This document shows positions 4,153-59,790 of a stretch of DNA of 64,000 bases, in pieces. The notes under the pieces are model-generated. The model was not told the origin of the DNA, ran no database searches, and saw only the letters and a program-made list of their open reading frames with translations. This stretch comes from an uncultured Candidatus Rokubacteria bacterium (GTDB lineage Bacteria; Methylomirabilota; Methylomirabilia; Rokubacteriales; DASRDR01). The position numbers were made by a program, and so were the translations under genes. The stretch is from assembly GCA_963805625.1 (NCBI GenBank), contig CAWDVE010000017.1, positions 608,001-672,000 on the forward strand, given 5' to 3'. Numbering within the stretch: the stretch's first letter is position 1; each line of letters opens with the position of its first letter.

Positions 4153-4168
4153 TGGCATTCGTGTTGCT
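4153..4168 (+). promoter_or_regulatory. sigma-54 -24/-12 promoter
   Basis: TGGCATTCGTGTTGCT = GG-N10-GC. Confidence 0.55.
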
Positions 4169-4195
4169 CTGTCGATCGCGGCCCGCGTCGTTCGC

Positions 4196-4730
4196 GAGTG
4201 GCGGCAGGGAGATGCTGGGGCGCTGCCGTTTCCGGACGCGTCGTTCGACCGGGTCCTGTGCCAGATGGCGCTCATGTTCTTTCCTGACCGGCTCGGGGCG
4301 CTCCGGGAGATGAGGCGGGTCACACCGCACCCCGCGCCACCGTGGCCCTTCTTGTTCCCGGACGTCTGGCCGCGCGCAGCCGGCGTACGGGCCGTTCGTC
4401 GAGATGGCGACGCATCACGCCGGGCCCGACGCGGCCTCGCTCCTGAGCACGTACTTCGCCTGCGGCGAGCTCGCCGGGCTCACGGCTCTCGTCGAGGCGG
4501 CCGGGCTACACGTCACGGAGACGCGGACCCGCCTCGGCCGCGCTCGGTTCGGCTCGGTCGACGCGTTCGTGGCCGCCGAGGTGGAGAGCACCCCGCTGAT
4601 CGGTCGTATCAGCGGGGACGTCTACGGGCGGATCCGGGAGGGTGCCCGCGAGGTGCTGCGGCCATTCACGACTCCGACGGGCCGCGTCGAGATTCCCCTC
4701 GAAGGACACCTCGTCGCCGCCCGGCCCTGA
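4196..4730 (+). pseudogene. 5'-truncated, frameshifted class I SAM-dependent methyltransferase
   Basis: EWRQGDAGALPFPDASFDRVLCQMALMFFPDRLGALREMRRV in one frame, C-terminus (..IPLEGHLVAARP) in another; no SAM motif I. Confidence 0.7.
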
Positions 4731-4862
4731 CCGGCCCGGCGATCCCGATCCCGGCTGGACGACAGGCCGGCCAGCATCGGCAGGACGAGCTCGACCGGGT
4801 CACCAGGGCTCGGTCGGACGGACGGAGTCGGAGGGAGCCGGGCGAGGCCCCGACCGTCCCGC

Positions 4863-5942
4863 TCAGGGGTCCGTGGTGTCCGGCGCCCGCGATTCCTCGG
4901 CGAAGCGGAGGAGAGCGATGGCGAGCGCAACGATCACGGGACCCAGGAACATGCCGATCGCCCCGAAGGCCGCGAGCCCGCCCACGAGCCCGACGAAGAC
5001 GGCAAGGGTCGGGAGCCCGGCACGACCCGAGACGACGAGCGGCCTGATGACGTTGTCGACGGAGGTGACCAGGCCGAGCGACCAGACGGCCAGGAAGAGC
5101 GCGGCCCAGGCCCGTCCCTGAGCGAGCAGCACGAGGACCCCCGGGACCCACACCAGGGCGGTGCCGACCAGCGGGACGGCTGACGCCAGGGCCGTGAGTA
5201 CCCCGAAGACGACCGGGGAGGGCAGGCCGACGACCGCGAAGCCGATTCCCAGGAGCGCGCCCTGCGTCACCGCCGTCAAGAGCATGCCCAGGACGAGCGC
5301 CCGGGTGACGGAGGACAGGTGGTCGAGGAGCGTGGCCTTCCGGTCTTCCGCCATCGGCACCAAGCGCATCGCCCGGCGCATCAGCTCCTCCCCGTCGCGG
5401 AGGAGGAAGAAGAGCAGGAAGAGCATGAGGGCGAGCCCGGCCACCGCGCCGAGCGCGCTGGCCAGTGCGGCTCCGCTCACCCCCATCAGGGTCAGGAGGA
5501 GGCTGCGGCCGTTCTGGACCAGCCAGATCTGGACCTGATCCGCGGTGAGGGGCACGTAGTTCCCGAGCCATCCGAACGCCCGCTCGGCGACCGGGATTCG
5601 CAAGAGATCGCTCATCTGCGCGACATGATGGCGCTCGGCGATCTCCTGGATGCGAGCGACGAGGTCACCCGCCTGGGTGGCGAAGGCCACCGCGATCAGG
5701 GCTCCCGGCCCCAGGATGAGGACGAGCCCGGCGAGCGTCAGCAGGAGCGCGGCCAGTCCTCGCCGCCCCCGCAGCGCACGGGTGAGCCTCTCGTTCAGGG
5801 GGTAGAGAAGGAAGGCGAGGAGAAACGCCCAGACGAACGACCCCGCGAAGGGCAGGGCCATGAGCACCAAGGCGTAGCCGAGAAGGGTCGCGGCGACAAG
5901 GGTGAAGACCTTGGGATAGAAGCCCCCGTCGGAGCGATTCAC
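4863..5942 (-). CDS. AI-2E family transporter
   Basis: Multi-TM; FFLLRDGE, PLVGTALVWVP, VDNVIRP, GGLAAFGAIGMFLGP motifs. Confidence 0.9.
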   Translation of the reverse strand: MNRSDGGFYPKVFTLVAATLLGYALVLMALPFAGSFVWAFLLAFLLYPLNERLTRALRGRRGLAALLLTLAGLVLILGPGALIAVAFATQAGDLVARIQEIAERHHVAQMSDLLRIPVAERAFGWLGNYVPLTADQVQIWLVQNGRSLLLTLMGVSGAALASALGAVAGLALMLFLLFFLLRDGEELMRRAMRLVPMAEDRKATLLDHLSSVTRALVLGMLLTAVTQGALLGIGFAVVGLPSPVVFGVLTALASAVPLVGTALVWVPGVLVLLAQGRAWAALFLAVWSLGLVTSVDNVIRPLVVSGRAGLPTLAVFVGLVGGLAAFGAIGMFLGPVIVALAIALLRFAEESRAPDTTDP

Positions 5943-6121
5943 GATGTCTCCCTTCCGGGAGGGCGTCCCGGCGAAGGTCAGGAGGCGATCACGACGATAC
6001 TACAGGCATAGTATGAATCGGGAGCGGGATGCGGGAGCGCGGGTCGTGGGGGGTGCCCCAGCGGGAGTCCCCCCGAGCGGCCGAGTGGCCGCGCCGCACC
6101 GGACACGGGGAGGGACGCACG

Positions 6122-6595
6122 ATGAGCAAGGGCAAGGCGAAGCCGACTCCCGAGGGGTACCACACCGCGACCCCATACTTGATCGTGGACGGTGCGGCGA
6201 AAGCCCTGGACTTCTACAGGCGGGTCTTCGGTGCCACCGAGCGCATGCGGATGCCGGGCTCCGGCGGCAAGGTGGGCCACGCCGAGATCAACATCGGCGA
6301 CTCGGTGATCATGCTCGTCGACGAGCATCCGGAGATGGGAGCGCGCGGGCCCCGGGCATACGGCGGCGTGGCCGTGAGCCTCCACCTGTACGTCCCGGAC
6401 GTGGACGCGACGGTGAAGAAGGCGGTGGCGGCGGGAGCCACGCTTCTCCGACCCGTGGAGGACAAGTTCTACGGCGACCGGATGGGCACCATCGAGGATC
6501 CCCTCGGACACCCCTGGCACGTCTCCCCTCACCAGGAGGACGTGCCGCCTGAAGAGACGGCGCGCCGGGCCGCCACCCTGACCAAGCCCGGTTAG
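6122..6595 (+). CDS. VOC/glyoxalase family (PhnB-like) protein
   Basis: TPYLIVDGAAKALDFY, HAEINIGDS, DKFYGDRMG motifs. Confidence 0.9.
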   Translation: MSKGKAKPTPEGYHTATPYLIVDGAAKALDFYRRVFGATERMRMPGSGGKVGHAEINIGDSVIMLVDEHPEMGARGPRAYGGVAVSLHLYVPDVDATVKKAVAAGATLLRPVEDKFYGDRMGTIEDPLGHPWHVSPHQEDVPPEETARRAATLTKPG

Positions 6596-6686
6596 TCGCG
6601 GCCGAGCCCGATGAGGGGGCGAGATCAGGGGTGAGGACGCCGTGCCCTGTTCACCCGAGGTGGCCGGGCCGCCAGCGAGCCCGTTG

Positions 6687-8901: not shown

Positions 8902-8918
8902 GCCCGGGAACGGGCGGC

Positions 8919-9683: not shown

Positions 9684-9744
9684 GGGAGCTACGCCCCCAC
9701 ATTAGCATGACCGCCGCCGAGTGCAACTGGTCCCCCATTGCCCT

Positions 9745-9760
9745 GGGCACGCTTCTTGCT
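9745..9760 (+). promoter_or_regulatory. sigma-54 promoter
   Basis: GGGCACGCTTCTTGCT, 14 nt before ATG 9775. Confidence 0.65.
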
Positions 9761-9774
9761 GGCGACCATCCAGA

Positions 9775-10758: not shown

Positions 10759-10772
10759 CGTACCGCCGCCCC

Positions 10773-11771: not shown

Positions 11772-11787
11772 AGCAAGGGAAGTGCCA
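11772..11787 (-). promoter_or_regulatory. sigma-54 promoter
   Basis: Minus strand TGGCACTTCCCTTGCT. Confidence 0.75.
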
Positions 11788-11870
11788 GACGCGCATTGTT
11801 GCCGTCTCCAGCAGAGACGCCTCTTTCGCTGGGTGAGGCCGGAATAATCCCCGTCAGCTCGGGGCAGGCC

Positions 11871-11900
11871 GACGGGATGTCCGCGGAGCGACAGGCTGAC
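11871..11900. promoter_or_regulatory. Palindromic upstream activator site (putative bEBP UAS)
   Basis: GACG-GGA-TGTCC-GCGGAG-CGACA-GGC-TGAC. Confidence 0.6.
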
Positions 11901-11930
11901 GCTGAGCCCTTGGAGCGACTCGAGACGCGA

Positions 11931-12671: not shown

Positions 12672-12733
12672 CAGAGTCTCCGGTTCAAGAATAGGGGGAA
12701 GGAGATGGCTCGGCAACGACTGGCCCGCTGGGC

Positions 12734-12763
12734 GTCAGGGTGTCGTCACCGCGACACGGCGTC
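12734..12763. promoter_or_regulatory. Palindromic upstream activator site
   Basis: GTCA-GGG-TGTCG-TCACCG-CGACA-CGG-CGTC. Confidence 0.65.
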
Positions 12764-12841
12764 GCGGTCGCGCGAGGCGTCGAAGCCAGGCCGAGCGGCA
12801 GGTAATTCCAGCTGCCCATGTGTGCAGCGAATTCGAGGGCA

Positions 12842-12857
12842 TGGCATGCGCCTTGCG
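12842..12857 (+). promoter_or_regulatory. sigma-54 promoter
   Basis: TGGCATGCGCCTTGCG. Confidence 0.7.
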
Positions 12858-15116: not shown

Positions 15117-15253
15117 CATGCGGTCTCCCCGCCGTCCGGTCTCCCGGGACCGCCGACGTCCGGCCGGCTGGCGACCGGCTTCGAGGTTCGATCGGCCGGT
15201 CGGCCGGAGCCTCCGGTGAAGGGTCTCCTGCACGCCGGCTCGTCGTGACCAGT

Positions 15254-15283
15254 GCCGTGGTGTCGGGAAGGCGACAAGTTGTC
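15254..15283. promoter_or_regulatory. Palindromic upstream activator site
   Basis: GCCG-TGG-TGTCG-GGAAGG-CGACA-AGT-TGTC. Confidence 0.6.
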
Positions 15284-15318
15284 GTGAGGCGGGGCAGGAG
15301 CCGTTCTCGGGGGACCCC

Positions 15319-15334
15319 CGGCATCGCGCTTGCT
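15319..15334 (+). promoter_or_regulatory. sigma-54 promoter
   Basis: CGGCATCGCGCTTGCT. Confidence 0.65.
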
Positions 15335-15848: not shown

Positions 15849-16801
15849 ATGCAGGAAGAGGTGTTTCGGTGTGAGACGATATCGTCCATGATCGGCGGCG
15901 CGCCGTCCGCCACCGGCAACTGCGCGACCTGGGAAAGCGTGCTCGAGGCGCCCGCCGAGGGGCAGCACGTCGCGCAGCTCTACACCGAGCCGGATTTCCT
16001 CGTGCGCGCGGTGTGTCGGTTCGTCGTGGCGGGGCTTCGCCAAGGCGAGGCCGTGCTCCTGCTGATTAGGGCCACCCACCGGCCGGCGATCGTGAGGCAC
16101 CTCGAGGCCGACGGGTTCGTGATCGACGATCTCTCGCATCGCGGTCAGTTGACGATCCTCGACGCCACCCGGACCTTGACCGAGCTGCTTGTCCATGGGC
16201 GGCCGGAGCGCGCGCGCGTCCAGGCGGTGGTCGGCGGGGCGGTCGAGGCCCGCATGGCCGCGGGGTACACGCGGTTTCGCGCGTTCGGGGAGATGGTGGA
16301 CATCCTCCGTCGGGCGAGCCTCACGATGGCGCTCCAGCTCGAGGGGTTGTGGACCGAGCTGGTGACCGCGCGCCGGATCGCGCTCCTCTGTGGCTATTCC
16401 ATCGACACACCTTCAATCCGGAAGCCTACCGGGGGCTTCTCCAGCGTGTCAGCGCCGCGCACCCGCACGTCGTTCCCGTCGAGGACTATGCGCGGCTCGA
16501 CCACGCCGTGGAGTCGGCCTACCTGGAAGTCTTCGGTGTTGGGCGGGACGCAGGGTTTCTCCGCCGAACGTTCATCGCCAACTATCCGAGACCGGTGACG
16601 ATGCCCGACGCCCAGGCGGCGATCCTGGCCGCGCAGGAGTTCGTTCCGGAGGCCGCGGTCGCGCTCCTCGATCGGATCCGCCACCACTACCACGGCCCCC
16701 CGACGGCGGCCTCCGGGAGGCCGTCGGCGGACGGGCCGCCGGGGCTCGTCAGGTCAAGCGACCTAGCGGGCCGAGGTCGAGATTCAGATCGTCGGGGGTG
16801 A
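15849..16801 (+). CDS. MEDS-domain sensor protein (frameshift near 16405)
   Basis: HVAQLY, GLRQGEAV, RAFGEMVDIL, LEGLW, LLCGY; continuation FNPEAY..HPHVVP in another frame. Confidence 0.7.
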
Positions 16802-17141
16802 GCCCGAACCGGCGTGTCAGCGCGCGGATGGCCTGCTCGAGCCTGAGCAACGCCAGCCCCACGGCCTCGGTCTCCTCGGGTGTCAACGTGCCCTCGTCGA
16901 CCCGCCGGAGGGCCTGGCGCTCGAGGAGCTGGCGTAGGAAGTCGACAAGCGTCAAGACCAGCTGCGCCATCGAGCGCTGCACGTCGTCGGGGTTGGCGTT
17001 CCAGCGCGCAGGCGCGGTGGCGCGGCGCCGCTGGCGCAGCTCCGACCGGAGCGCCCGAAGCTCCTTCGCGCGCACGGTCTTCACAGTCATCCGGCGCCGC
17101 TTCACGGCCACGCGTCGCCCCCGAATGCGTACGGTGGCCAC
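16749..17141 (-). CDS. gvpK: Gas vesicle protein K
   Basis: LVLTLVDFLRQLLERQALRRVDEGTLT..DLNLDLGPLG; start uncertain. Confidence 0.92.
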   Translation of the reverse strand: MATVRIRGRRVAVKRRRMTVKTVRAKELRALRSELRQRRRATAPARWNANPDDVQRSMAQLVLTLVDFLRQLLERQALRRVDEGTLTPEETEAVGLALLRLEQAIRALTRRFGLTPDDLNLDLGPLGRLT

Positions 17142-17794
17142 GGGCCGCTGACAGTGAGACGGAGCGGCGCGAGCTGGCTGGCGGCGCGGGTCACGCGCGT
17201 CCGGTATTGCGCTCTCCGGTCGCGCGACACCAGATGGTAGACGCTGGCGAGGAGCGGCGGGGTGGCATGGCGCTGGACCCGCTCGTCGGCGACGAGGTCA
17301 TCGAGTAGCGCGCGAATCGGATCTAGCTCGGGCACCGTCGCCGCGTGATGAAGGCGCTTGCGCTCGGCGAGGTAACGCGTGCCAGGACCGGGCCGGCCCC
17401 CCGCGGTCTTTCCGACTACGGGGGGGTAAGGCTGGGACGCTTCGCGGGGACCGAAGACGCGGAGGGTCATCTGCTCGTGCCCACGCACTTGGGCCAGCCT
17501 CCCCGCAAGCTCGAGGGCGCGCGGAGCCAGCAGGCGCGCGGCCGCATCCTCGTCGGACGCCACGGAACCGAAGCGCATCGGCAATATGGCGTCGACCGCG
17601 GCGGCGATGCGGCGGACGATGGCGTCGTGGCGCCGCAGAGTCGCGGGCGATGCCGCGGGTGGGGTGTCCATCCGGCCCATGACCACGTGGAAGCCTCGGC
17701 CCGGCAGGACCTCCAAACGCTCTCGGCGGAGCCCGCGGCCCGGGTCGCTCCGCAGCGAGTCGCCGACCAGGGCGTAGAGGTAGAGGACGGTCAC
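17102..17794 (-). CDS. GvpL/GvpF family gas vesicle protein
   Basis: LYLYAL, ILPMRFG, SGPWPPYAF; GTG overlaps upstream stop. Confidence 0.88.
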   Translation of the reverse strand: MTVLYLYALVGDSLRSDPGRGLRRERLEVLPGRGFHVVMGRMDTPPAASPATLRRHDAIVRRIAAAVDAILPMRFGSVASDEDAAARLLAPRALELAGRLAQVRGHEQMTLRVFGPREASQPYPPVVGKTAGGRPGPGTRYLAERKRLHHAATVPELDPIRALLDDLVADERVQRHATPPLLASVYHLVSRDRRAQYRTRVTRAASQLAPLRLTVSGPWPPYAFGGDAWP

Positions 17795-18036
17795 TTCCGG
17801 CCCTGCCGCGGCGTGACCCGATCGGCGGCGCACAGGAGCACCGATAGTCGCAGATAGACGAGGTTGACGTCGGCCAGGGCGAGCACGACGTCTCCCGACA
17901 CCACCACACCCTTGGTGAGGACGTGGTCCACGATGTCGAGGAGCGACGCGTCGGAATCCGGCGCCCGCGCGCGGGACCGCCGTGTCCGCCGCCGCCCGGT
18001 CAGAGACGCCCGGCGACGAAGCTGTACGGAGGCCAT
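17791..18036 (-). CDS. gvpS: GvpA/J/S family gas vesicle protein (GvpS-like)
   Basis: SLLDIVDHVLTKGVVVSGDVVLALADVNLVYLRLSVLL. Confidence 0.85.
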   Translation of the reverse strand: MASVQLRRRASLTGRRRTRRSRARAPDSDASLLDIVDHVLTKGVVVSGDVVLALADVNLVYLRLSVLLCAADRVTPRQGRK

Positions 18037-18833
18037 GGGCCCGTTAGCCGGACGTGGAGCCCCTTGTCCGCCGCCTGTGCCGCCTGCGCCCGGACCGCCT
18101 GTCGGAACAGCGCGGCTCGCCCGGTTGGCACCAGGTAAGCTGCGTCGAGGAGCAAGGCCGGCCTGTCGTCCACCGCTATCGGGGGGCGCTGGCGGGCGGC
18201 GTCGGCGTGTCGGGCGAGCGCCCGGTGAAGCGAGGTCGCCGCCGCTCGCGCCCCGCCGGTGAGGCCGCGCGCCGTTTCGCGCTGGCGGCGACGAAGTTCA
18301 AGGAACCGAGTTCCGGGGCTCAGCCCGGCCGTCTCTCGCCGCGCCACCGCGCGCGCGCGTCGCGCCGAAGCCCCGCCTCCTGTCTCGAGCCGCGCCTGGA
18401 CCCCCCACTCCGTCCGGCCGGCCACGCTGGTCAAGCGCCGCGCGATGGCGACGCGGCGCCGGCGCACCTGGGCGAGCGCACGCCCGTCGCTCGAGAAGAG
18501 GGTCAGGAGCCGGAGAGGGAGGACAGCATGCCGCCGCGCACAGTGGGTGACGACTGCCGAATGGGCGACCGCGCATCTCGACACCGCGTCGAGGTCGCGG
18601 ACGACCCGCGCCAGCGCGGCCTCCCCGTATCGGGAAACCGGCGCGTCGGCGACGATCAGCCAGAGCGCCTGCCCGGCGGCCAGCGCCCGGAGCTTCCCCG
18701 TGCCCGGGAGCCCCCCAGCGCCTCGGAGATCCGGTGGCCGGGCGCTCCGCACGACGCAGTAGACGTACGTGGCCGCCTGTGCCGCCGCGGCGGGGCGGCC
18801 CGGCTTCGTCGAGGCCTTTCGCGCGCCTGTCAC
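18000..18833 (-). CDS. GvpL/GvpF family gas vesicle protein
   Basis: TYVYCVV, VLPLRL, EWGV, LDAAYLV, TGPWPPYSF; GTG overlaps ATPase stop. Confidence 0.88.
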   Translation of the reverse strand: MTGARKASTKPGRPAAAAQAATYVYCVVRSARPPDLRGAGGLPGTGKLRALAAGQALWLIVADAPVSRYGEAALARVVRDLDAVSRCAVAHSAVVTHCARRHAVLPLRLLTLFSSDGRALAQVRRRRVAIARRLTSVAGRTEWGVQARLETGGGASARRARAVARRETAGLSPGTRFLELRRRQRETARGLTGGARAAATSLHRALARHADAARQRPPIAVDDRPALLLDAAYLVPTGRAALFRQAVRAQAAQAADKGLHVRLTGPWPPYSFVAGRL

Positions 18834-20839
18834 GACGCCGCCCGGGTCCAGGTCCGCGCCCAGCCGCGGAGGGCCTTCACACCCCTGGGTGGGGGGGCCA
18901 CGGCCGGCGCCAGCAGCACGGGCAAAGCCAGCCCGGGTCGAGCAACCGCGCGCAGCCCGCGCACCTCCGCAGACTCCGTGCGCGTGGCTGCCGCCCTGGT
19001 GACGCCGGCCGGGGTGAGCGCGTTCACGATCAGGGCGGACACAGTGAGACCCAGCGCGTCGAGCCGACGCAGGAGACGGATCGTCTCGAGGCGGGGCAAG
19101 GCGGCCGCTCGGGTGACCACGACCACGCGCGCCTGACGAGGGTCGGCGAGGAGGACCTGGAGCTGCCGGAGGCCGCGCGAGAGCTCGACCAGGTCCGAGG
19201 CCAGGGCGCCAAGACCGAGGATCTGCCGGTACTTGAGAAGCGTGGTCAGGAGCGCGCGCACCCACTCGAGGGCCAGCCCGGGCAGTGCCAGGAGCCGGAG
19301 CGTGTGGCCTGTGGGCGCGGTGTCGACGACGACGAGGTCGTGGCGCGGCAGGGCGGCGCCTGGCGGGAACAGGGTCTCCGTCACGGTCAGCAGCGCGCAC
19401 AGCTCGTCCAGGCCGCCCGGAGCGAGGTCGAGCAGGTCGCGGGCGACGGCCCGGTCGAAGGCGACGTCGAACCGCGAGCCCCCCCGGATCGTGTCGAACA
19501 GCTCGTCCACCGCCGCCCGGTAGCGCTCGCGCCGCGCGGCGAACGCGCGGCTGGCGTCAAGCTCGCGAACGCCGAGGGCGGCCGGGCCGGCGGGCACGCG
19601 GCGCTCCTCGTCGCCGACTTGTGTCGAGAGGACGTCGCCGAGGGAGTGGGCGGGATCCGTGGACAGGAGCAGGATGCGGCGGGTCGGTGCCGCGTCGCCG
19701 AGCGTCAGCGCCATCGCGGCGGCGCACGTCGTCTTGCCGACCCCGCCCTTGCCGGTGATCAGAAGGAGTCGGATGCCGGCCGGCGCGACCAGCCGCGGCC
19801 AGGTGACGGTGATCTCGCGGGACCGGGCCGCCCCGTGGCCTCGAGCCGCGCGCCGCGCCGGCACTCTGGTCAGGAGCTCGCGACCGCGGGAGCGTCTCGC
19901 AAGACTCCTGACCAAAGATCGGAGCGCCACCGGCCCGCGGGGCTCCTCGATCTGCTCGGGGACGAGGCGCACCGGGTGATCGGGGAACGCCGCGTGAACC
20001 GCTGCGATGGCCTCGCGCTCGGCGACGACTCGCCGACGCTCGAACGCGCTGGGGCCCTCCCGAGTCGCAGTCACTCGGTTGACGAGGATCTCGTCAATCG
20101 GGATGCCGCTGGCCTCCAGGTCACGGACGGCGTCCCGCGCCTCCTCGACGGCCAGTGTCTCGGGCAGGACGATCCACCGGAACCGGCAGCGGTCGCGATC
20201 GCGGAGGAGACTGGCTAGCCGGCCGGCCTCGGCGTCGATCTCGGCCACGAGGCGATCCGCCGCGTCGTTCCGGTCTCGGCCCGAGAGCCGCGTGAGCAGG
20301 AAGTGGTGCTTGGCCAGCATCTCGCCGAGCACGGCCGCGATCCTTTGCAGCGCCTCCGGAACGGCCAGGAGCCTGAGCGTGTGCCCGGTGGGCGCGGTGT
20401 CGACGACAACGGTGTCGTACCGGCCGGCCGTCGCCACCCGCGTCAGTTCGAGGAGCCCGCCCAGCTCGTCCACCCCAGGGAAGCTCAGGCCAAGGAAACG
20501 GTCGACGTCCGCGTCGTCGAGATAGGTACCTCGCTCGGCGATGAGGTGCAGCGACTCCCGGCGGGCCCGGAGCCAGCGGGCGAGGGCCCGGTCGGCATCG
20601 AGCTCCAGGGCGTCGAGCGCCGCCCCGCCGACCGGGATGCGCGTCACGCGCGCCCCCACCCGCTGGCCGAGCGCGTCACCCAGCGAGTGCGCCGGGTCGG
20701 TGGATACCACGAGAGTTCGCTGGCGAGCGCCGGCCGCCGTGAGCGCGAGCGCTGCCGCCATGGTGGTCTTGCCCACGCCGCCCTTGCCACCGATGAACTC
20801 GTAGGATGGTGCCCGCCGCCGGGAGGCCGGCCGTCTCAC
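18830..20839 (-). CDS. Tandem two-domain ArsA/GET3-family ATPase
   Basis: Two GKGGVGKTT P-loops, two STDPAHSL, two DTAPTGHT; GTG overlaps gvpG stop. Confidence 0.92.
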   Translation of the reverse strand: MRRPASRRRAPSYEFIGGKGGVGKTTMAAALALTAAGARQRTLVVSTDPAHSLGDALGQRVGARVTRIPVGGAALDALELDADRALARWLRARRESLHLIAERGTYLDDADVDRFLGLSFPGVDELGGLLELTRVATAGRYDTVVVDTAPTGHTLRLLAVPEALQRIAAVLGEMLAKHHFLLTRLSGRDRNDAADRLVAEIDAEAGRLASLLRDRDRCRFRWIVLPETLAVEEARDAVRDLEASGIPIDEILVNRVTATREGPSAFERRRVVAEREAIAAVHAAFPDHPVRLVPEQIEEPRGPVALRSLVRSLARRSRGRELLTRVPARRAARGHGAARSREITVTWPRLVAPAGIRLLLITGKGGVGKTTCAAAMALTLGDAAPTRRILLLSTDPAHSLGDVLSTQVGDEERRVPAGPAALGVRELDASRAFAARRERYRAAVDELFDTIRGGSRFDVAFDRAVARDLLDLAPGGLDELCALLTVTETLFPPGAALPRHDLVVVDTAPTGHTLRLLALPGLALEWVRALLTTLLKYRQILGLGALASDLVELSRGLRQLQVLLADPRQARVVVVTRAAALPRLETIRLLRRLDALGLTVSALIVNALTPAGVTRAAATRTESAEVRGLRAVARPGLALPVLLAPAVAPPPRGVKALRGWARTWTRAAS

Positions 20840-21162
20840 CGGCGGGAGACGTCCCGGTCGCGATCCTCGTCGAAGGTGTCGTCGCCCACGACGCTCGCCT
20901 CCACCCCCGTGACCCGGAAGGTACCGGGCGGCTCCGCGCGGCCCTGCTGGCGCTCTCGGATTTCCCGGATCCGGGCAAGCAGCTCGCGCTCGATCTTGAC
21001 GAACTGGCGCTCGGAGATCTCGCCGAGCTCGAGGCGCATCTGCGCTGCCAGGAGCTCCTCGCGCCACGCGGTGTCGTCGGCCATCTCGGCCTCCACTGCG
21101 GCGGCGATCTTCCCCAGGACGAACTTGAGACTCCCGACGAGGAGCGTGTCGAGAATGATCAC
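20836..21162 (-). CDS. gvpG: Gas vesicle protein G
   Basis: Helical, LELGEISERQFVKIERELLARI; position after gvpF. Confidence 0.8.
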   Translation of the reverse strand: MIILDTLLVGSLKFVLGKIAAAVEAEMADDTAWREELLAAQMRLELGEISERQFVKIERELLARIREIRERQQGRAEPPGTFRVTGVEASVVGDDTFDEDRDRDVSRR

Positions 21163-22151: not shown

Positions 22152-22155
22152 CGAA

Positions 22156-24749: not shown

Positions 24750-24752
24750 GAC

Positions 24753-25103: not shown

Positions 25104-25107
25104 CGGT

Positions 25108-25899: not shown

Positions 25900-25915
25900 T
25901 GCAAGGCACATGCCT
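25900..25915 (-). promoter_or_regulatory. sigma-54 promoter facing the gvp operon
   Basis: Minus strand AGGCATGTGCCTTGCA. Confidence 0.65.
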
Positions 25916-26179
25916 CGGGAGTGAGGCGAAGCTAGCTCCTAGGCCCACGTCCTCGCCGGTCAACGCCGAGGAACGACGTCCTCTCTCAACCCGAGAGAAG
26001 ATGACAGCTCAATCGGGAGGTGACGCGATGTTGAGGGGCAATACTGCCCGAATTCCCCACTTGTGTGTGACTCGATTCCGCAGGAGCGGGATCGGCAGTG
26101 GCGAATGAGACCGACCAGCGGGAGCCGTCAGCTCGCTTCAAGGAGTCCGCTTGCGAGACGGGTTAGGCGATCCAGGGCC

Positions 26180-26209
26180 GACAATATGTCGCATGGGCGA
26201 CAGGCAGAC
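26180..26209. promoter_or_regulatory. Palindromic upstream activator site
   Basis: GACA-ATA-TGTCG-CATGGG-CGACA-GGC-AGAC. Confidence 0.6.
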
Positions 26210-26325
26210 GCAAGGGTGGTCGGCAAGGAAAAGCCCGGGGCGACCCTGAGGTGGGGAGGGTCCGCCTCTCATCGGGGACCCGCCGCGGTTGCGGTAGCCT
26301 CGCGGGTTCTACCGCGATTTGATGT

Positions 26326-28290: not shown

Positions 28291-28306
28291 AGCAAGGGCA
28301 GTGCCA
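28291..28306 (-). promoter_or_regulatory. sigma-54 promoter
   Basis: Minus strand TGGCACTGCCCTTGCT. Confidence 0.75.
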
Positions 28307-28312
28307 CGTGCC

Positions 28313-28328
28313 GGGCACAGCCGTTGCA
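28313..28328 (+). promoter_or_regulatory. sigma-54 promoter (divergent partner)
   Basis: GGGCACAGCCGTTGCA. Confidence 0.6.
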
Positions 28329-30537: not shown

Positions 30538-30553
30538 AGCAAGGCACGTGCCA
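30538..30553 (-). promoter_or_regulatory. sigma-54 promoter
   Basis: Minus strand TGGCACGTGCCTTGCT. Confidence 0.8.
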
Positions 30554-30618
30554 CGCCCGGCCGCGAGCTATTCGCCGTAGAAGCTCACGGCGGTGCCGCC
30601 GGGCGGATCGGGCTGGCG

Positions 30619-30648
30619 GTCATCGAGTCGCTGACTCGACACCCTGTC
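30619..30648. promoter_or_regulatory. Palindromic upstream activator site
   Basis: GTCA-TCG-AGTCG-CTGACT-CGACA-CCC-TGTC. Confidence 0.55.
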
Positions 30649-30668
30649 ACCGGAGCGGTGCGGGGCGA

Positions 30669-35063: not shown

Positions 35064-35079
35064 TGCAACGCTGATTCCA
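35064..35079 (-). promoter_or_regulatory. sigma-54 promoter
   Basis: Minus strand TGGAATCAGCGTTGCA; ATG 14 nt after -12 C. Confidence 0.65.
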
Positions 35080-35183
35080 CGGGATTTCGCCATCCCGCTG
35101 GAGAGACCTGTCGTGAATTTCGTGCAGCAACGCCAATCGCGAATCGGATCGACGCCGGCTAGAGTCCGCAGCTTGAATCCGAC

Positions 35184-35213
35184 GACATCATGTCGCGTGG
35201 GCGACATCCTGAC
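35184..35213. promoter_or_regulatory. Palindromic upstream activator site
   Basis: GACA-TCA-TGTCG-CGTGGG-CGACA-TCC-TGAC. Confidence 0.7.
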
Positions 35214-35280
35214 GGCGCCGGGCGACGCGACAGTCGTCGGATTTCGAGCTGGCGAGACTATCCCGCGCGGGTTACCGAGT

Positions 35281-35966: not shown

Positions 35967-35982
35967 AGCAAGGCACGTGCCA
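35967..35982 (-). promoter_or_regulatory. sigma-54 promoter
   Basis: Minus strand TGGCACGTGCCTTGCT (identical to 30538). Confidence 0.8.
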
Positions 35983-36057
35983 GTGGAGTCGCCGCCCCGC
36001 ATGTGTCCGCGTGCGGCAACTACCCGCGAAATCGATGAGAATGCCTCGAGGCTCAAC

Positions 36058-36087
36058 GCCACCCTGTCGCCCGCACGCCGGGCTGTC
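36058..36087. promoter_or_regulatory. Degenerate palindromic activator site
   Basis: GCCA-CCC-TGTCG-CCCGCA-CGCCG-GGC-TGTC. Confidence 0.4.
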
Positions 36088-36119
36088 GCGCGTCGGACGC
36101 GTGCTAAACTGAGGCCCCC

Positions 36120-37598
36120 GTGGGGCTGAGACTTCGCCTGTTCCTACTCCTCCTCGTGCCGATGGTGCTGGTCGTCGCCCTCTTCGCATACGTTCTAGTC
36201 CAGGATGAGCGCGCCCAGCGGCGGGCGGAGTTCGACCTGCGCGTGAGCGTCACGAGCGCGGCGATCCGACTCGCGGTGGAGAACGCGCTTCGCAGCGGCA
36301 CGCCGGTCGACGTGGAGCGTCTGGCCCGTGATCTGGTCGTAAAGCAAACCGAGATCGTCCGGATCCGATTGCTCGACCGGAGCCTTTCGCCACGCGTCGA
36401 CGCGAACCTTCTCACCGGCGACCCCGGCGTGCCCCTCGATCGACATCGCCAGGTCCGGGACACGGGCCAGCCTGCGGTCGTGGAGCACCAGAGTGGCGGC
36501 ATCCGGCTCCACACGATGCTGCTCCCGGTCCGGTCCTCCGGGAACGACGAAGGGGTGCTCGAGATCGCCTTCATCGCGGGCCGCCTGGAGGCCGAACTTC
36601 TGGGCGAGAGCTACAAGATCGCGCTGCGGGGCGGTGTCCTCGTCCTCTTGCTGGGCCTCGTTGTCTGGGTGGCCCTGCAGCGCCTCGTGTTCCGGCCGGT
36701 CGCCGACCTGATGCAGGGCATCGAGCGTGTCGCGGCCGGCGAGTCCCGCGCGCCCGTCCCGGTCCGGAGCCGCGACGAGCTGGGGAAGGTGGCGGCGGCC
36801 TTCAACCGGATGACAGAACGGCTGGAGGACGCTCGCGGGCGGGCGGAGACCGAGACGGACCGGTCGCTCGAGCTCATGCGCCGGCTACGACAGACCGAGT
36901 CGCTCGCGATCGCCGGCAAGCTCTGCTCGAGCATGGCCCACGAGGTGGGGACGCCGCTCAACATCATCGCCGGGCGCGCCGAGCTGACACTCCGCGCGCT
37001 GCCAACGGACTCGCCGCTCCGCGAAGACCTCAACGTCATCATCACCCAGATCGACCGGATCTCCCGGATGATCCGTGCGGCCCTGGATCCCTTCCGCCAG
37101 CGAGAGCCCGAGCGAGCGGCTGTCGCGCCCGCGTCGGTCACGGACGCGCTGCGGCCGCTTCTCCAGCACTTCGCCAAGGGTCGCGGCGTGACCCTCGCGG
37201 TCTCGATCCCGCCGGCCCTTCCGCAGGTGTGCGTCGACCCCGGGCACCTCCAGCAGGTCCTGATCAACCTCCTGACGAACGCCATCGAAGCGACTCCGGC
37301 GGGGGGGCGGGTCGAGGTCAAGGGTGCCCGCCGGGCCGACGAAGGTCGGCCCGGCGTTGTCATCACGGTGCGGGACACGGGCGCAGGGATCCCGGAGAAC
37401 GTCCTACCCCGGATCTTCGATCCCTTCTTCAGCACCAAGCCCGCTCGCGAAGGGGCCGGTCTCGGCCTCGCCATCTGTCGGGACCTCGTGAGGTCAAATG
37501 GAAGCGAGATCCACGTGGCGAGCACGCCCGGCGAGGGCACCACCTTCACCGTCTGGCTTCCAGAGGCCGGGCCTGAAGACAGGAAGGAGCAGTCATGA
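36120..37598 (+). CDS. Membrane HAMP sensor histidine kinase (NtrB/ZraS-like)
   Basis: 2 TMs, HAMP (DELGKVAAAFNRM), AHEVGTPLN, NAIEA, DTGAGI, FFSTK, GLGL. Confidence 0.92.
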   Translation: MGLRLRLFLLLLVPMVLVVALFAYVLVQDERAQRRAEFDLRVSVTSAAIRLAVENALRSGTPVDVERLARDLVVKQTEIVRIRLLDRSLSPRVDANLLTGDPGVPLDRHRQVRDTGQPAVVEHQSGGIRLHTMLLPVRSSGNDEGVLEIAFIAGRLEAELLGESYKIALRGGVLVLLLGLVVWVALQRLVFRPVADLMQGIERVAAGESRAPVPVRSRDELGKVAAAFNRMTERLEDARGRAETETDRSLELMRRLRQTESLAIAGKLCSSMAHEVGTPLNIIAGRAELTLRALPTDSPLREDLNVIITQIDRISRMIRAALDPFRQREPERAAVAPASVTDALRPLLQHFAKGRGVTLAVSIPPALPQVCVDPGHLQQVLINLLTNAIEATPAGGRVEVKGARRADEGRPGVVITVRDTGAGIPENVLPRIFDPFFSTKPAREGAGLGLAICRDLVRSNGSEIHVASTPGEGTTFTVWLPEAGPEDRKEQS

Positions 37599-38962
37599 AG
37601 CCCCGAATCCTCGTGGTGGACAACGATCCCGATATGGTGGCGCTTCTCCGGCGTCATCTGGAGGTGGAAGGCTGGGCGGTGACGGCCGTGACGGGAGGGG
37701 AGGACGCCCAGACCGCGCTCGGGCGCGAGGAGTACGCGGTCGTCCTGACTGACCTCGTCATGGAGCCGGTGGACGGCCTGGCCGTGCTTCGAGAGGCCCA
37801 GCGCGTCCAGCCACGGGCGCGCGTGATCCTCATGACCGCGTTCGGGAGCCTCGAGAGCGCGATCGATGCCATGCGTCAGGGCGCGTACGACTACCTGACC
37901 AAGCCCTTCAAGCTTCCGGAGCTGTCGCTGGTCGTCAAGCGGGCCGTGGAGGACCAGCAGATCCGGGAGGAAAACCGTCGGCTCCGGGCCGAGGTCGAGC
38001 GCCGCTACAGCTTCGACAATATCCTCGGCCGGTCGAAGGCGATGGAGGCCGTGTTCGAGCAGATCCGGGTGGTGGCGGACACCGATGCTCCGGTCCTGCT
38101 CCTGGGCGACAGCGGCTCGGGCAAGGAGCTCGTGTCGCGGGCGATCCACTGGCACAGCGGCCGGCGCGAGGGTCGGTTCGTCGCCGTCAACTGTGCGGCC
38201 ATTCCTGAGACCCTGCTGGAATCCGAGCTGTTTGGCCACGAGAGGGGAGCCTTCACCGGCGCTGACCGGAAGCGGCGGGGCCTCTTCGTTGAGGCCCAGG
38301 GTGGCACCCTCCTTCTCGATGAGATCGCCGAGATGCCCCAGTCACTGCAGGTCAAACTGCTCCGTGCCCTCCAGGACCGCGTCGTCCGGCCTGTGGGCGG
38401 CAACGAGGAGATCAAGGTGGATCTGCGTCTCATCAGCGCGACCAACCGGGATCTGCCGGCCTTCGTGCGGCAGGGGAAGTTCCGGGAGGACCTCTACTAC
38501 CGTCTGGCCGTCATCCCCATCCGGATCCCCAGCCTCAAGGAACGGCCGGAGGACATCCCGCTTCTCGCCGAGCACTTCCTGAAGCGGGCGGCGGCCGGGA
38601 TGGGCAAGGAGATCGAAGGCTTTGACGAGGAGGCACTCAAGTGGCTCCTCGAGCACAACTGGCCGGGGAACGTCCGCGAGTTGGAGAACGTCGTCGAGCG
38701 GGCGGCGACCCTCGCCAAGGGCCGGCACATCACGCGGGACGACCTCCGGATCGAGTTCACCCCCGGCTCGACCGGCGAGCTGGGGGTGCGCCCATCCCTG
38801 GCCGAGGTGGAGAGCCAGTACATCCGCCGCGTCCTCGACGAGGTCCGAGGCGACAAGCGGGCCGCGGCCCGTATCCTCGGGATCAGCGTACGGACACTTC
38901 AGCGGATGCAGGCCAACATGATGCGCGTGGGCCCAGGGTTCACGGACCAGCAGTCGTCATGA
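37595..38962 (+). CDS. sigma-54-dependent NtrC-family response regulator (REC-AAA+-HTH)
   Basis: GDSGSGKE, ESELFGHERGAFTGA, LDEI, WPGNVREL, C-terminal AARILGISVRTL HTH. Confidence 0.95.
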   Translation: MKPRILVVDNDPDMVALLRRHLEVEGWAVTAVTGGEDAQTALGREEYAVVLTDLVMEPVDGLAVLREAQRVQPRARVILMTAFGSLESAIDAMRQGAYDYLTKPFKLPELSLVVKRAVEDQQIREENRRLRAEVERRYSFDNILGRSKAMEAVFEQIRVVADTDAPVLLLGDSGSGKELVSRAIHWHSGRREGRFVAVNCAAIPETLLESELFGHERGAFTGADRKRRGLFVEAQGGTLLLDEIAEMPQSLQVKLLRALQDRVVRPVGGNEEIKVDLRLISATNRDLPAFVRQGKFREDLYYRLAVIPIRIPSLKERPEDIPLLAEHFLKRAAAGMGKEIEGFDEEALKWLLEHNWPGNVRELENVVERAATLAKGRHITRDDLRIEFTPGSTGELGVRPSLAEVESQYIRRVLDEVRGDKRAAARILGISVRTLQRMQANMMRVGPGFTDQQSS

Positions 38963-38964
38963 TC

Positions 38965-38980
38965 TGGCACGCGCTTTGCT
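38965..38980 (+). promoter_or_regulatory. sigma-54 promoter
   Basis: TGGCACGCGCTTTGCT; ATG 14 nt after -12 C. Confidence 0.8.
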
Positions 38981-42782: not shown

Positions 42783-42798
42783 AGCAAGCTCTGTGCCG
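42783..42798 (-). promoter_or_regulatory. sigma-54 promoter
   Basis: Minus strand CGGCACAGAGCTTGCT. Confidence 0.7.
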
Positions 42799-42887
42799 GA
42801 CAGCGATCCCGGCCTCAATTCGCGAGGATCAGCGGATCTCTGGTCGAGGGGACAGGCCTCACGCTCGATGCGTGCGGGGGAGGCGCC

Positions 42888-42917
42888 GACACGGTGTCGT
42901 CCCTCCGACAGCCTGAC
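42888..42917. promoter_or_regulatory. Palindromic upstream activator site
   Basis: GACA-CGG-TGTCG-TCCCTC-CGACA-GCC-TGAC. Confidence 0.7.
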
Positions 42918-42935
42918 GCGGGAAAGGATCCGCGA

Positions 42936-46380: not shown

Positions 46381-46396
46381 CGCGAGCCGTGTGCCA
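46381..46396 (-). promoter_or_regulatory. sigma-54 promoter (variant -12)
   Basis: Minus strand TGGCACACGGCTCGCG. Confidence 0.55.
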
Positions 46397-46456
46397 CGTC
46401 GCGACGATCGGCGCCCCGCGATCACGCCATGCCGCAGCGTACGAGCCGGCCGCGGT

Positions 46457-46485
46457 GTCATGTGTCGTGACGCTGACAGCGTGAC
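46457..46485. promoter_or_regulatory. Palindromic activator site between divergent sigma-54 promoters
   Basis: GTCA-TG-TGTCG-TGACGC-TGACA-GCG-TGAC. Confidence 0.6.
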
Positions 46486-46555
46486 GTCGGAAGTGCATCG
46501 CGATCGGAGGATTCGATCCGGGCGACGGCGACGGGCGAACCACGATCGAGGACCG

Positions 46556-46571
46556 AGGCACATGCCTTGCA
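46556..46571 (+). promoter_or_regulatory. sigma-54 promoter
   Basis: AGGCACATGCCTTGCA. Confidence 0.7.
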
Positions 46572-48006: not shown

Positions 48007-48022
48007 AGCAACTTAGTTGCCC
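48007..48022 (-). promoter_or_regulatory. sigma-54 promoter
   Basis: Minus strand GGGCAACTAAGTTGCT. Confidence 0.6.
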
Positions 48023-48136
48023 GTTCCCGCGAACCTGGAACCGGTCGGACACGAAACTCTCGATATGCCCAGCACATGGGCGAGTCTCAACGGCGGCCAT
48101 GTCTCGATGACGCACGCGTCGATCCCACTCGAAATA

Positions 48137-48166
48137 GTCATGTCGTCGCGCCGGTGACACCATGAC
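48137..48166. promoter_or_regulatory. Palindromic upstream activator site
   Basis: GTCA-TGT-CGTCG-CGCCGG-TGACA-CCA-TGAC. Confidence 0.6.
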
Positions 48167-48246
48167 GACGTGGTGAACGGCCCTGGCGTGGCTGCCTCCG
48201 CACCGTTGTCGTGATGGGCACTGGCCTGGAAAGTCCCGCGCGCCGG

Positions 48247-49969: not shown

Positions 49970-49985
49970 TGCGAAAGCCATGCCG
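49970..49985 (-). promoter_or_regulatory. sigma-54 promoter (variant -12)
   Basis: Minus strand CGGCATGGCTTTCGCA; ATG 14 nt after -12 C. Confidence 0.55.
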
Positions 49986-50028
49986 TCACCACCCGAACGC
50001 GCAGCACGCGGTTGAGCACTTGTCGCGC

Positions 50029-50058
50029 GTCGGAGTGTCGCGGCGGCGACACCATGGC
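50029..50058. promoter_or_regulatory. Palindromic activator site between divergent sigma-54 promoters
   Basis: GTCG-GAG-TGTCG-CGGCGG-CGACA-CCA-TGGC. Confidence 0.65.
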
Positions 50059-50138
50059 GTGACGCGTCGCGTCGGTCGTCACGGCCGCCGCACATCGTAT
50101 ACGGCCGACATTCGAAGAGGCCGCTCCGCGCTCGCGGC

Positions 50139-50154
50139 CGGCACAGAGATTGCC
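50139..50154 (+). promoter_or_regulatory. sigma-54 promoter
   Basis: CGGCACAGAGATTGCC. Confidence 0.6.
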
Positions 50155-57836: not shown

Positions 57837-57963
57837 GGATGGTCCTGGAGGGCAACTTCCGTACCAGACCACCGGACCGTGGTCAGACGACCGGCACACG
57901 AAACACTCTTCCGCATTCGCGTCGTCGGCGCTCCAGCGTCGAGCCGGTGCCGAACCGAGGGGC

Positions 57964-57993
57964 GCCATGGTGTCGTCGCCGCGACAGCGTGAC
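57964..57993. promoter_or_regulatory. Palindromic upstream activator site
   Basis: GCCA-TGG-TGTCG-TCGCCG-CGACA-GCG-TGAC. Confidence 0.7.
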
Positions 57994-58110
57994 GCACGGG
58001 CGGCGAACGCGGGCGCATCGGGATCGCCGAGAGTCTGGTCATCCGTCGCGTCCTCGGTGATGGCGGGCGCGGCAACCCGACGTGGTCAGCCCGCGAAATT
58101 CACGGACGAC

Positions 58111-58126
58111 TGGCATCTCGATTGCT
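58111..58126 (+). promoter_or_regulatory. sigma-54 promoter
   Basis: TGGCATCTCGATTGCT. Confidence 0.7.
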
Positions 58127-58182
58127 CCTTCTGACTCGCAGAGCTTGCGCACTACACCGTGAAGCACCGAGGAGGATGGAGC

Positions 58183-58873
58183 ATGAAGAGTCGAATCTGT
58201 GCCTTTCATCAGCGCCGTGGCCCTCGCGGGCGCGTTCGGGGCGACGCACGCCAACGCCCAGTCGCCGCCCAAGCCCGTCGCCGCCACGGGACAGCCCGCG
58301 AAGAACGCCGAGCAGATCAATGACACGAAGCGCTTTGCCGAGCACACGGGGCTGTACCGCGCCAGCTCGGTCGTCGGGAGCGGCGTCAAGGACCTGGCCG
58401 GCAAGGACGCCGGGAAGATCGAGGATCTGCTCCTCGACCACCGTGGCCACGTCGGGTACGCCGTCGTGTCGTTCGGCGGCTTCATGGGCATCGGCGACAA
58501 GCTGTTCGCGGTGCCGTGGGACGCGGTCATCGTCGATCGCGAGAAGCGAACCGTCTACGTCGACGTGAAGAAGGAGACCCTCGAGCGGTCGCCGAGCTTC
58601 ACGGCAGACAAGTACCCCGATCCCAATGACCGGGAGTGGGGTCGCGACGTCCGCAAGGCCTGGAGCGACGCGTCCATCACCGCTGCGGTGAAGACGAAGC
58701 TCGCGGGGACGTCGCCCGCCACGCTGCTGAAGGTCAATGTCGACACGACCAACGGCATCGTGCAGCTCAACGGCACCGTCGACAACGACAAGACGCGACA
58801 GCGCGCGACGGAGCTCGCCCGGCAGGTCGACGGCGTGCGCCGCGTGGTGAACAACCTCAAGGTGCAGGGCTAA
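58183..58873 (+). CDS. Secreted PRC-barrel + BON domain protein
   Basis: RASSVVG..GKIEDLLLD..YAVVSFGGFMGIGDKLFAVPW; DASITAAVKTKL..VVNNLKV; probable +1 error near start. Confidence 0.85.
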
Positions 58874-58993
58874 CGCCCGGCGCCGCGAGGCCTCTCCCGC
58901 GGTCTCGGCAGGGCCCGGGCCACGCCGCGAGGCGTCCCGGGCCCTGTCCGCTCCTTTCCATCGGTCGTCACTCGCCGTCGAAGGAGGTCCTCG

Positions 58994-59641
58994 ATGGCAG
59001 CGCACACCACTCCCAAGACTCCGAAGGCCTACCGGAAGCGCGAGTTCGACCTCAAGGGGCTCGCCGGCATCTCGGACGCCCAGATCGAGGAGCACCTGAC
59101 TCTCTACGCCGGCTACGTCAAGCAGGTCAACGCGCTGAACGAGGAGCTGGCCGAGATGCTCGCTCGCGGCAAGGCGTCGGGCAAGAGCCCGGAGTTCGCC
59201 GAGCTGACGCGACGCCTGGGCTTCGAGTACAACGGAATGATCCTTCACGAGTACTACTTCGGTAACCTCCGGGCCGCCGCCAATCCGAAGCCCCCGGCGG
59301 GATCGGGGCTGACGGAGGCCCTCGTCGGGTCCTTCGGATCGGCCGATCAGTGGCGGACCGACTTCCAGGCAATCGGCGAGATGCGCGGGGTCGGGTGGGT
59401 GATCCTGTTCCAGGATCCCGTGACCGATCGCCTCACGAATCACTGGATCACGCTCCACCAGGACGGCGTGCCCGCGGGGTTCAAGCCGCTCCTGGTCATG
59501 GACGTCTGGGAGCACGCCTTCATGCGGGACTACAAGGCGACCGAGCGCGACCAGTACATCGAGGCGTTCTTCCGGAACATCGACTGGTCCATCGTCGAGA
59601 CCCGGCTCCAGGAAGAGCGCGCCGTCCGGCCCGCAGCCTGA
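58994..59641 (+). CDS. Fe/Mn superoxide dismutase family protein
   Basis: Metal ligands EEH, ILHEYY, DVWEHAF; RBS AGGAGG. Confidence 0.9.
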   Translation: MAAHTTPKTPKAYRKREFDLKGLAGISDAQIEEHLTLYAGYVKQVNALNEELAEMLARGKASGKSPEFAELTRRLGFEYNGMILHEYYFGNLRAAANPKPPAGSGLTEALVGSFGSADQWRTDFQAIGEMRGVGWVILFQDPVTDRLTNHWITLHQDGVPAGFKPLLVMDVWEHAFMRDYKATERDQYIEAFFRNIDWSIVETRLQEERAVRPAA

Positions 59642-59667
59642 GCATCCGTCACGGTATTCCCTCGACT

Positions 59668-59699
59668 CGTCACGGTGTCGCCGCGGCGACACCGTGACG
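59668..59699. promoter_or_regulatory. Perfect 32-bp palindrome, consensus activator site
   Basis: CGTCACGGTGTCGCCGCGGCGACACCGTGACG. Confidence 0.75.
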
Positions 59700-59774
59700 G
59701 AGGTGCGGCTCTCCGGACCGTTGGAATCCGGCCCGTTTCCGGCCGCCGGACGCCCGATCTCGGGCGAACTGGCT

Positions 59775-59790
59775 CGGCACGCGACTTGCC
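59775..59790 (+). promoter_or_regulatory. sigma-54 promoter
   Basis: CGGCACGCGACTTGCC. Confidence 0.65.

Follow-up and report, generated by a model that had tools for sequence, protein, structure and literature searches.

An island of sigma-54-type promoters ahead of survival genes in a Rokubacteria genome and its predicted control by an adjacent two-component activator

The stretch of DNA analyzed here (64,000 nucleotides, C17:608001-672000; hereafter the window) comes from the genome of an uncultured Candidatus Rokubacteria bacterium (7.27 Mb, 69% GC, completeness 99.9%, contamination 6.3%). It carries an island of sigma-54-type promoters placed before survival genes, most of which are likely switched on by an adjacent sensor kinase and its NtrC-type activator, the latter being the predicted binder of a paired palindrome designated UAS-A. 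We give this reading, which rests on sequence comparison, a probability of about 0.7. Genes were predicted with a custom hexamer model, which returned 6618 genes in the genome with approximate start positions.

A first-pass annotation of the window had listed 20 GG-N10-GC sites as sigma-54 promoters of stress genes. The motif was present at all 20 coordinates, minus-strand sites being given there by their left end. With a position weight matrix for which 151 sites from elsewhere in the genome served as the training set, 17 of the 20 reached at least 12 bits, the three weaker ones being 46395(-) with 9.6 bits, 49984(-) with 10.3 bits and 48021(-) with 8.3 bits. One further site absent from that list, 57865(-), was found ahead of a trehalose/glycogen hydrolase operon. 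Altogether the window holds 22 sites of at least 12 bits, of which 19 fall outside confident genes. Sixty third-order Markov simulations gave 1.9 such sites on average and 6 at most, and the median over 103 genome tiles is 3; the window stands well above background and is the densest tile of the genome. A strict core pattern, GGCA-N6-TTGC, gave 20 matches in the window (16 intergenic), which thereby headed the 194 overlapping tiles; four wrong spacings used as controls gave 0-1 matches each. Genome-wide, the strict core was found 267 times (171 intergenic, 133 aimed at a start within 300 bp), and the wrong-spacing controls 105-137 times (36-44 intergenic, 9-12 oriented). Sigma-54 sites were retained in 12 independent relative loci, and a single rpoN copy is present in the genome.

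The many frameshifts in the window and the existence of a near-duplicate contig, C26, would suit an assembly artefact, and a 69% GC genome might yield such motifs by chance; the excess of sites over simulation, the spacing controls and the retention in relatives refute this explanation, to which we assign a negligible probability. The promoter-motif island is real. Contig C26 carries a copy of the region 35-64 kb of the window, 87-99% identical and with intact frames where the window has frameshifts, and is probably the copy of a sister strain. Because the C26 frames are intact, the frameshifts of the window are doubtful as genuine pseudogenes, and the breaks are likely assembly errors. Two of the weaker sites score higher on C26, the elaB-like one with 15.1 bits and the csbD one with 10.1 bits.

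All perfect dyads in the upstream regions of 249 intergenic sigma-54 sites were counted without bias, and two clear winners emerged. UAS-A ranked second (10 observed, 0.94 expected) and was refined to CGWCA-N3-TGTCG-N6-CGACA-N3-TGWCG, a 32-bp element in which 6 bp separate two inverted repeats of 13 bp each, an arrangement that, by comparison with known bEBP enhancers, would fit two activator dimers. It was found at 32 of 248 sigma-54 sites, as compared with 0.8% of 2500 random upstream regions, and its copies in the window scored 20-33 bits with a matrix built without the window. When the 47 copies of at least 17 bits were considered, a count that leaves out C26, a sigma-54 site pointing away was found at 43-160 bp in 30 cases and one pointing toward in 3. 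A clear copy lies 50-140 bp upstream of 12 of the 20 sites first listed; among the other eight, two have a common copy, one base short in the window and intact on C26, and a third has its copy at a distance of 280 bp.

The kinase gene (36120..37598, plus strand) encodes a membrane sensor histidine kinase in which Pfam, alignment and a structural model delineate a transmembrane segment, a periplasmic domain of ~130 amino acids, a second transmembrane segment, HAMP, HisKA (with the invariant H274) and HATPase. It is followed by the gene of an NtrC-family bacterial enhancer-binding protein (bEBP; 37595..38962, plus strand), with a receiver (D53), an AAA+ domain containing GAFTGA and a Fis helix-turn-helix, the predicted UAS-A binder. 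Both genes are intact. The activator shows 89-97% best-segment identity to proteins of 12 records, 10 of which are labelled Ca. Rokubacteria or Methylomirabilota. It scored under every named-family cut-off of the NCBIfam equivalogs (AtoC 455/714, NtrC 427/559 and ZraR 403/760 bits, with GlrR likewise below), and its best solved relatives are 4l4u, 1ny5 and ZraR 1ojl. A Pfam search with the periplasmic domain of the kinase gave no match, and the kinase model (pLDDT 79, pTM 0.40, 14 sequences) gave structural matches to kinase cores only. In the window and in 10 close-relative loci, a conserved extended -10 element precedes the kinase start, with UAS-A lying over the -35 region (36055..36110, plus strand, centre about 36072, located by matrix scan and relative loci). 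This placement suits autorepression, and the same copy would also serve the divergent promoter at 35981. Either RpoD or the RpoS-like factor of this genome (see below) could act at the kinase promoter.

The genome contains 48 matches to the activator family, about 36 of them full-length bEBP-like, and UAS-A could conceivably be bound by another bEBP or a co-regulator, the window bEBP being a mere neighbour. Among 39 bEBP-like proteins, more than one UAS-A copy within 10 kb was found only for the window bEBP, with 7 copies, and for its duplicate on C26, with 6, a proximity that derives partly from clustering of the island and in that measure counts against the assignment. The bEBP matches of 150 other genomes of the phylum were grouped into orthologues of at least 60% identity, confined to Rokubacteriales, a group at 54-59% and general paralogues at about 50%, genome groups being set by protein first and UAS-A counted afterwards. 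The comparison took in all 97 genomes of the order that belong to other genera. When one mismatch at most was allowed, UAS-A occurred in 29 of 35 orthologue-positive and in 1 of 62 orthologue-negative genomes, a difference that overstates independence, since the genomes are kin, and that was counted in fragmentary assemblies; the reversed pattern, used as a control, occurred in 0/97. UAS-A presence and absence are mixed inside several genera. In 26 of the 29 genomes the orthologue has a copy on its own contig at a distance of no more than 6 kb, and this copy often follows the stop codon of the orthologue by 20-80 bp. Genome G145 has UAS-A and the orthologue was not found there, and some copies in the present genome lack a sigma-54 promoter, as would be expected of a different binder; the G145 assembly, however, is in 1070 contigs, and the split between genome groups together with the close linkage makes another binder unlikely. 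The assignment of the window bEBP as the putative UAS-A binder is well supported by this comparison of genomes. The first-pass annotation had proposed that sigma-54 and a two-component bEBP run the stress genes, a proposal that gains from the common enhancer-like element tying the sites to the window's own kinase-bEBP pair.

Besides kinship and clustering, several observations weigh against the reading proposed here. Six of the 35 orthologue-positive genomes (G086, G091, G093, G114, G118 and G138) have no copy at one mismatch, homologues of family f10, at 55-59% identity, have none either, and 11 orthologue-positive genomes of other genera have csbD without UAS-A. Within this genome, five of the 20 sites have no UAS-A nearby, and for 17 of the 47 copies, among them those ahead of ligD and of the RsbRST operon, a sigma-54 site pointing away is lacking. 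One f10 locus (L119, G121:C2:386000-405000) contains two tandem kinase-bEBP paralogues beside trehalose genes and sigma-54 sites, without UAS-A; the tandem pair looks like the same module, likely with a different site.

Under the proposed mechanism, the kinase would phosphorylate the activator in response to an extracytoplasmic signal, for which osmotic or water stress is the most likely candidate. Two activator dimers on the paired sites would then oligomerise and open the sigma-54 promoters, and autoregulation would come from the UAS-A copy that covers the -35 region of the kinase gene itself. Occlusion of sigma-70-family promoters by sigma-54 is known, and with an RpoS-like sigma factor present, sigma-54 might instead serve chiefly to repress overlapping RpoS/RpoD promoters or to form a poised block on them. 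The enhancer-like elements, however, lie at activating distance and on the upstream side only, and the GAFTGA loop of the activator is intact, so that such a blocking role appears very improbable.

The promoters of the window were located by matrix scans and their targets named from Pfam. Both naming and orientation in the first-pass annotation were largely borne out: csbD, BON, DUF1328, gvp and lipid enzymes were recovered by Pfam, and most sites point to an adjacent gene. The label elaB-like is weak (DUF883_C, E=0.01, under the cut-off, on the intact C26 copy). Pfam matches in the window comprise csbD, two BON proteins, DUF1328, DUF1344, gas-vesicle genes, GlgX and a debranching enzyme, and further superoxide dismutase, phospholipase D (PLD), diacylglycerol kinase and LPG synthase, with DUF3309 on the C26 copy.

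At the left end of the window, two plus-strand sites have no UAS-A: 4154..4167 (21.5 bits), which aims into a frameshifted gene, and 9746..9759 (12.6 bits), before an LPG-synthase transmembrane protein. The minus-strand promoter at 11773..11902 (GG 11786, 20.9 bits; UAS-A centre 11885) precedes a member of the diacylglycerol kinase family. Two plus-strand promoters follow, one at 12731..12856 (UAS-A centre 12748, GG 12843) before a glycine-zipper lipoprotein, an RlpA-like protein, MlaC and DUF1344, and one at 15251..15333 (UAS-A centre 15268, GG 15320) before a 141-amino-acid protein without assigned function and a MEDS protein. At 25901..26211 (minus strand), the site GG 25914, with UAS-A 280 bp upstream (centre 26194), faces the gas-vesicle operon 16749-25488, sitting 426 bp before its first gene. 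This cluster contains several GvpA/J-like genes, three GvpF/L, G and K, among which a double ArsA-type ATPase and a PAS kinase with a receiver are inserted. Back-to-back sites 28305(-) and 28314(+) (28292..28327), the latter aimed into a weakly supported open reading frame, have their closest UAS-A at 28789, 484 bp off, and the link is doubtful. A minus-strand promoter at 30539..30650 (GG 30552, UAS-A centre 30633) serves an M48 peptidase and hemerythrin; upstream of the hemerythrin gene, an Encapsulin (Linocin_M18) fragment adjoins a trehalose/glycogen enzyme fragment (30669-31319).

Around the kinase-activator pair, a minus-strand promoter at 35065..35215 (GG 35078; UAS-A centre 35198, 35 bits) precedes a nucleotidyltransferase and the isoamylase GlgX, and the site 35968..35981 (minus strand, GG 35981, 20.5 bits) a WXXGXW-repeat lipoprotein. 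Four bp past the bEBP stop, the site 38966..38979 (plus strand, 16.6 bits) leads to a single-domain response regulator, a nucleotidyltransferase and a metallophosphoesterase; it has no UAS-A in the window, and many distant relatives have UAS-A at that position. Further right, the promoter at 42784..42919 (minus strand, GG 42797, UAS-A centre 42902) precedes a PCC-domain protein and small proteins. The divergent sites 46395(-), before elaB-like and holin-X/YqjE-like genes, and 46557(+) (46382..46570) have in common the incomplete UAS-A copy noted above (4.9 bits in the window, 30.1 bits on C26). The csbD gene, followed by BON and DUF3309, lies behind the weak site GG 48021 with a UAS-A of 25.6 bits (48008..48168, minus strand, centre 48151). 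Two further divergent pairs have a common UAS-A: 49984(-), before an AI-2E transporter, and 50140(+), leading to a transglycosylase and no stress marker (49971..50153, UAS-A centre 50043); and 57865(-), before a TreZ-like hydrolase and a debranching enzyme, and 58112(+), before a PRC+BON protein and superoxide dismutase (57852..58125, UAS-A centre 57978). The last promoter, at 59666..59789 (plus strand, UAS-A centre 59683, GG 59776), precedes a small lipoprotein, DUF1328 and DUF1344. Beyond the window, UAS-A targets include a TreS-like alpha-amylase, topoisomerase IB (TopoIB), a DUF892-like ferritin followed by YihY and LigD domains, a second PLD, a PRC-barrel protein, an SRPBCC cyclase and receiver proteins.

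With at most three mismatches, UAS-A was counted 46 times in this genome, 22-44 times in six same-genus genomes and 0-9 times elsewhere, controls giving 0-3. In other Methylomirabilota families only scattered matches with 2-3 mismatches were found (0-2 per genome), in 5 genomes of other phyla none, and near distant bEBP homologues 1/41 loci had a copy at 14 bits. Neighbours of the module in distant relatives, among the matches listed from 20 regions, are trehalose-6-phosphate synthase/phosphatase, TreT, TreY/Z-like enzymes, GlgX, MscS channels, single-domain receivers and lipoproteins. These distributions suggest a small osmotic/trehalose core that this genus may have expanded. The core of the distant genera would consist of trehalose synthesis, MscS channels and single-domain receivers, and this genus would likely have grown the regulon to about 30-45 promoters by adding csbD, BON, glycogen, TopoIB, LigD and gas-vesicle genes. 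In one relative, G017, an RpoD-like sigma gene lies downstream of a UAS-A/sigma-54 promoter (L102:3254-4582), possibly forming a sigma cascade.

Conservation at csbD was assessed in the best 30 loci by score from 121 genomes of the order, sites being sought at 10 bits or more, in the correct orientation and within 350 bp. A sigma-54 site was found in 26 of the 30 loci, including all 10 from orthologue-lacking genomes, as compared with 0/30 for a wrong spacing and 8/30 for the opposite strand; UAS-A was found in only 3 of the 30, all of this genus. Since sigma-54 sites at csbD are kept order-wide and UAS-A accompanies csbD only in this genus, the activator probably differs between genera. Outside the order, csbD had a sigma-54 site in 6/15 loci of an Acidobacteriota-centred sample (4/19 dropped, one unpublished and three below the cut-off) and in 2/18 of a Myxococcaceae-centred sample (2/20 dropped, below the cut-off), counts that are rough, having been obtained with a matrix tuned to this genome.

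Besides UAS-A, the dyad count had singled out UAS-B, which accompanies 25 sigma-54 sites; no site has both elements. Many lie in C19:313-410 kb before genes for universal stress proteins (USP), CBS and Hsp20 proteins, around a bEBP gene of their own (C19:330471-331853). Low-oxygen regulons such as DosR have a similar gene content, and the UAS-B island looks like one of them. The base just 5' of the -12 TT is C in 24/32 UAS-A promoters and G in 13/25 UAS-B promoters. A third palindrome was sought among 99 sigma-54 sites of this genome without UAS-A or UAS-B, and nothing survived 718-1303 tests. At least two activators and at least two palindromes would be at work in the genome. Strong sigma-54 sites were also seen at C17:301558, C13:22913 and C21:212877, each ahead of a gene; from their N-termini we presume these genes to be lpxC, radC and glmS, respectively.

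The scope of the programme depends on the other sigma factors. The genome encodes 13 sigma-70-family proteins, namely RpoD, a second RpoD-like factor (C13:267131-268669, 512 amino acids, just below the RpoD cut-off), ten extracytoplasmic function (ECF) factors and one group-2 sigma of 337 amino acids. The gene of the latter follows surE, pcm, an acylphosphatase gene and a LysM-M23 gene in the nlpD position, the canonical surroundings of rpoS. The protein scored below the RpoS cut-off (TIGR02394, 290.8/378.7), solved RpoS and SigA structures scoring about alike, and matches of at least 51% identity were found in 51 of 61 genomes of the order. This syntenic, conserved gene speaks against the idea that the lineage lacks RpoS. 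No SigB/F/G-family sigma exceeded the cut-off among the genome's sigma factors (best TIGR02980, 130.5/234), and NepR was not found in the genome, a Caulobacter control being positive. A stressosome-like RsbR-RsbS-RsbT-SpoIIE operon feeding two hybrid kinases (C16:357000-365000) occurs in this genome without SigB, with a 28.5-bit UAS-A upstream and no sigma-54 site. Neither sigma-54 sites nor UAS-A were found at Dps and the two Ku genes, and no sigma-54 site of at least 13 bits lies directly before the surE-rpoS-like cluster.

The claim that this lineage runs its general stress response through sigma-54 held only in part, given the retained rpoS-like gene and the lack of sigma-54 sites at Dps and Ku; a large survival-gene set predicted to be wired to sigma-54 via the window's two-component activator holds, and as a sole route it does not. 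The regulon would work beside the RpoS-like sigma factor, not in its place, and its general nature is suggested by gene content only. A reading with the same mechanism and a smaller scope deserves real weight, if tentatively: the promoters and activator would be real and the regulon a narrow osmotic/trehalose or dormancy-entry one, the RpoS-like sigma carrying the broad general stress response. The syntenic rpoS-like gene, the Dps and Ku genes, the trehalose enzymes and MscS channels that dominate among targets in distant genera, and the single periplasmic sensor, which implies a single signal, would all suit it. In this genus, however, the targets span oxidative (superoxide dismutase, YciF-like), DNA (TopoIB, LigD domains), envelope and storage functions, and the single csbD of the genome belongs to the UAS-A set.

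The kinase-activator pair resembles NtrBC at glnAp2, ZraSR and AtoSC in its kinase and receiver-AAA+-Fis helix-turn-helix activator, GAFTGA, paired palindromes, -24/-12 promoters and probable autoregulation. Those systems control nitrogen, zinc and acetoacetate genes, whereas here the site is another one and the predicted regulon consists of survival genes. Textbook general stress responses use a dedicated sigma-70-family factor, and their markers include csbD, osmY/BON, DUF1328, DUF3309, trehalose/glycogen, TopoIB, LigD and YihY. The RpoS (enterics), SigB (Bacillota) and EcfG-PhyR-NepR (Alphaproteobacteria) regulons have marker genes in common with the predicted regulon; they operate by sigma stability or partner switching, in contrast to the sigma-54-type promoters, ATP-driven activator and membrane kinase predicted here. 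Terms for such marker genes appear in the available text of papers on RpoS (PMC5437024) and EcfG (PMC7083833).

Borrelia burgdorferi Rrp2-RpoN-RpoS is alike in combining sigma-54, a bEBP and RpoS within one adaptive network. There, sigma-54 makes RpoS (PMC4014564, available portion), whereas here the target genes hold sigma-54 sites directly. A more far-reaching and rather doubtful proposal is a fourth general-stress architecture, with sigma-54 cores fixed order-wide, enhancer and activator swapped between genera and, in this genus, a cascade from the RpoS-like sigma through the kinase-bEBP pair to sigma-54, which would run in the reverse order to that of Borrelia. In the Desulfovibrio vulgaris sigma-54 regulome, many bEBPs have each their own site, and DVU3305 is labelled 'general stress response' (PMC4641369, as excerpted); that label covers two local operons, as opposed to the genome-wide set of about 30-45 promoters proposed here. 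The main text of a 16-phylum sigma-54 survey, in the portion available, reports USP and CBS enrichment in Planctomycetes and is silent on Methylomirabilota, Acidobacteria, CsbD, osmY and general stress (PMC12316311). Excerpts of other papers mention csbD without a sigma-54 link (PMC13101641, PMC10782981) and assign no role to Ralstonia rpoN2 (PMC4371752, PMC8657755). In the literature covered, outside of which most subscription papers fall, no account was found of a sigma-54 regulon of these genes or of sigma-54 in Rokubacteria; the parts of the system are classical, and its regulon content and site appear undescribed.

To our knowledge, Rokubacteria have no cultured member. The results provide one named candidate activator, one 32-bp site and about 30-45 predicted targets, for which tests in E. 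coli do not need culture of the host. They also suggest that the regulon evolved at two levels, by growth to 22-46 sites in one genus, compared with 0-9 in others, and by a probable change of activator at csbD with the sigma-54 core kept. In this organism, survival genes would need an ATP-driven activator despite the presence of an RpoS-like sigma factor in the genome.

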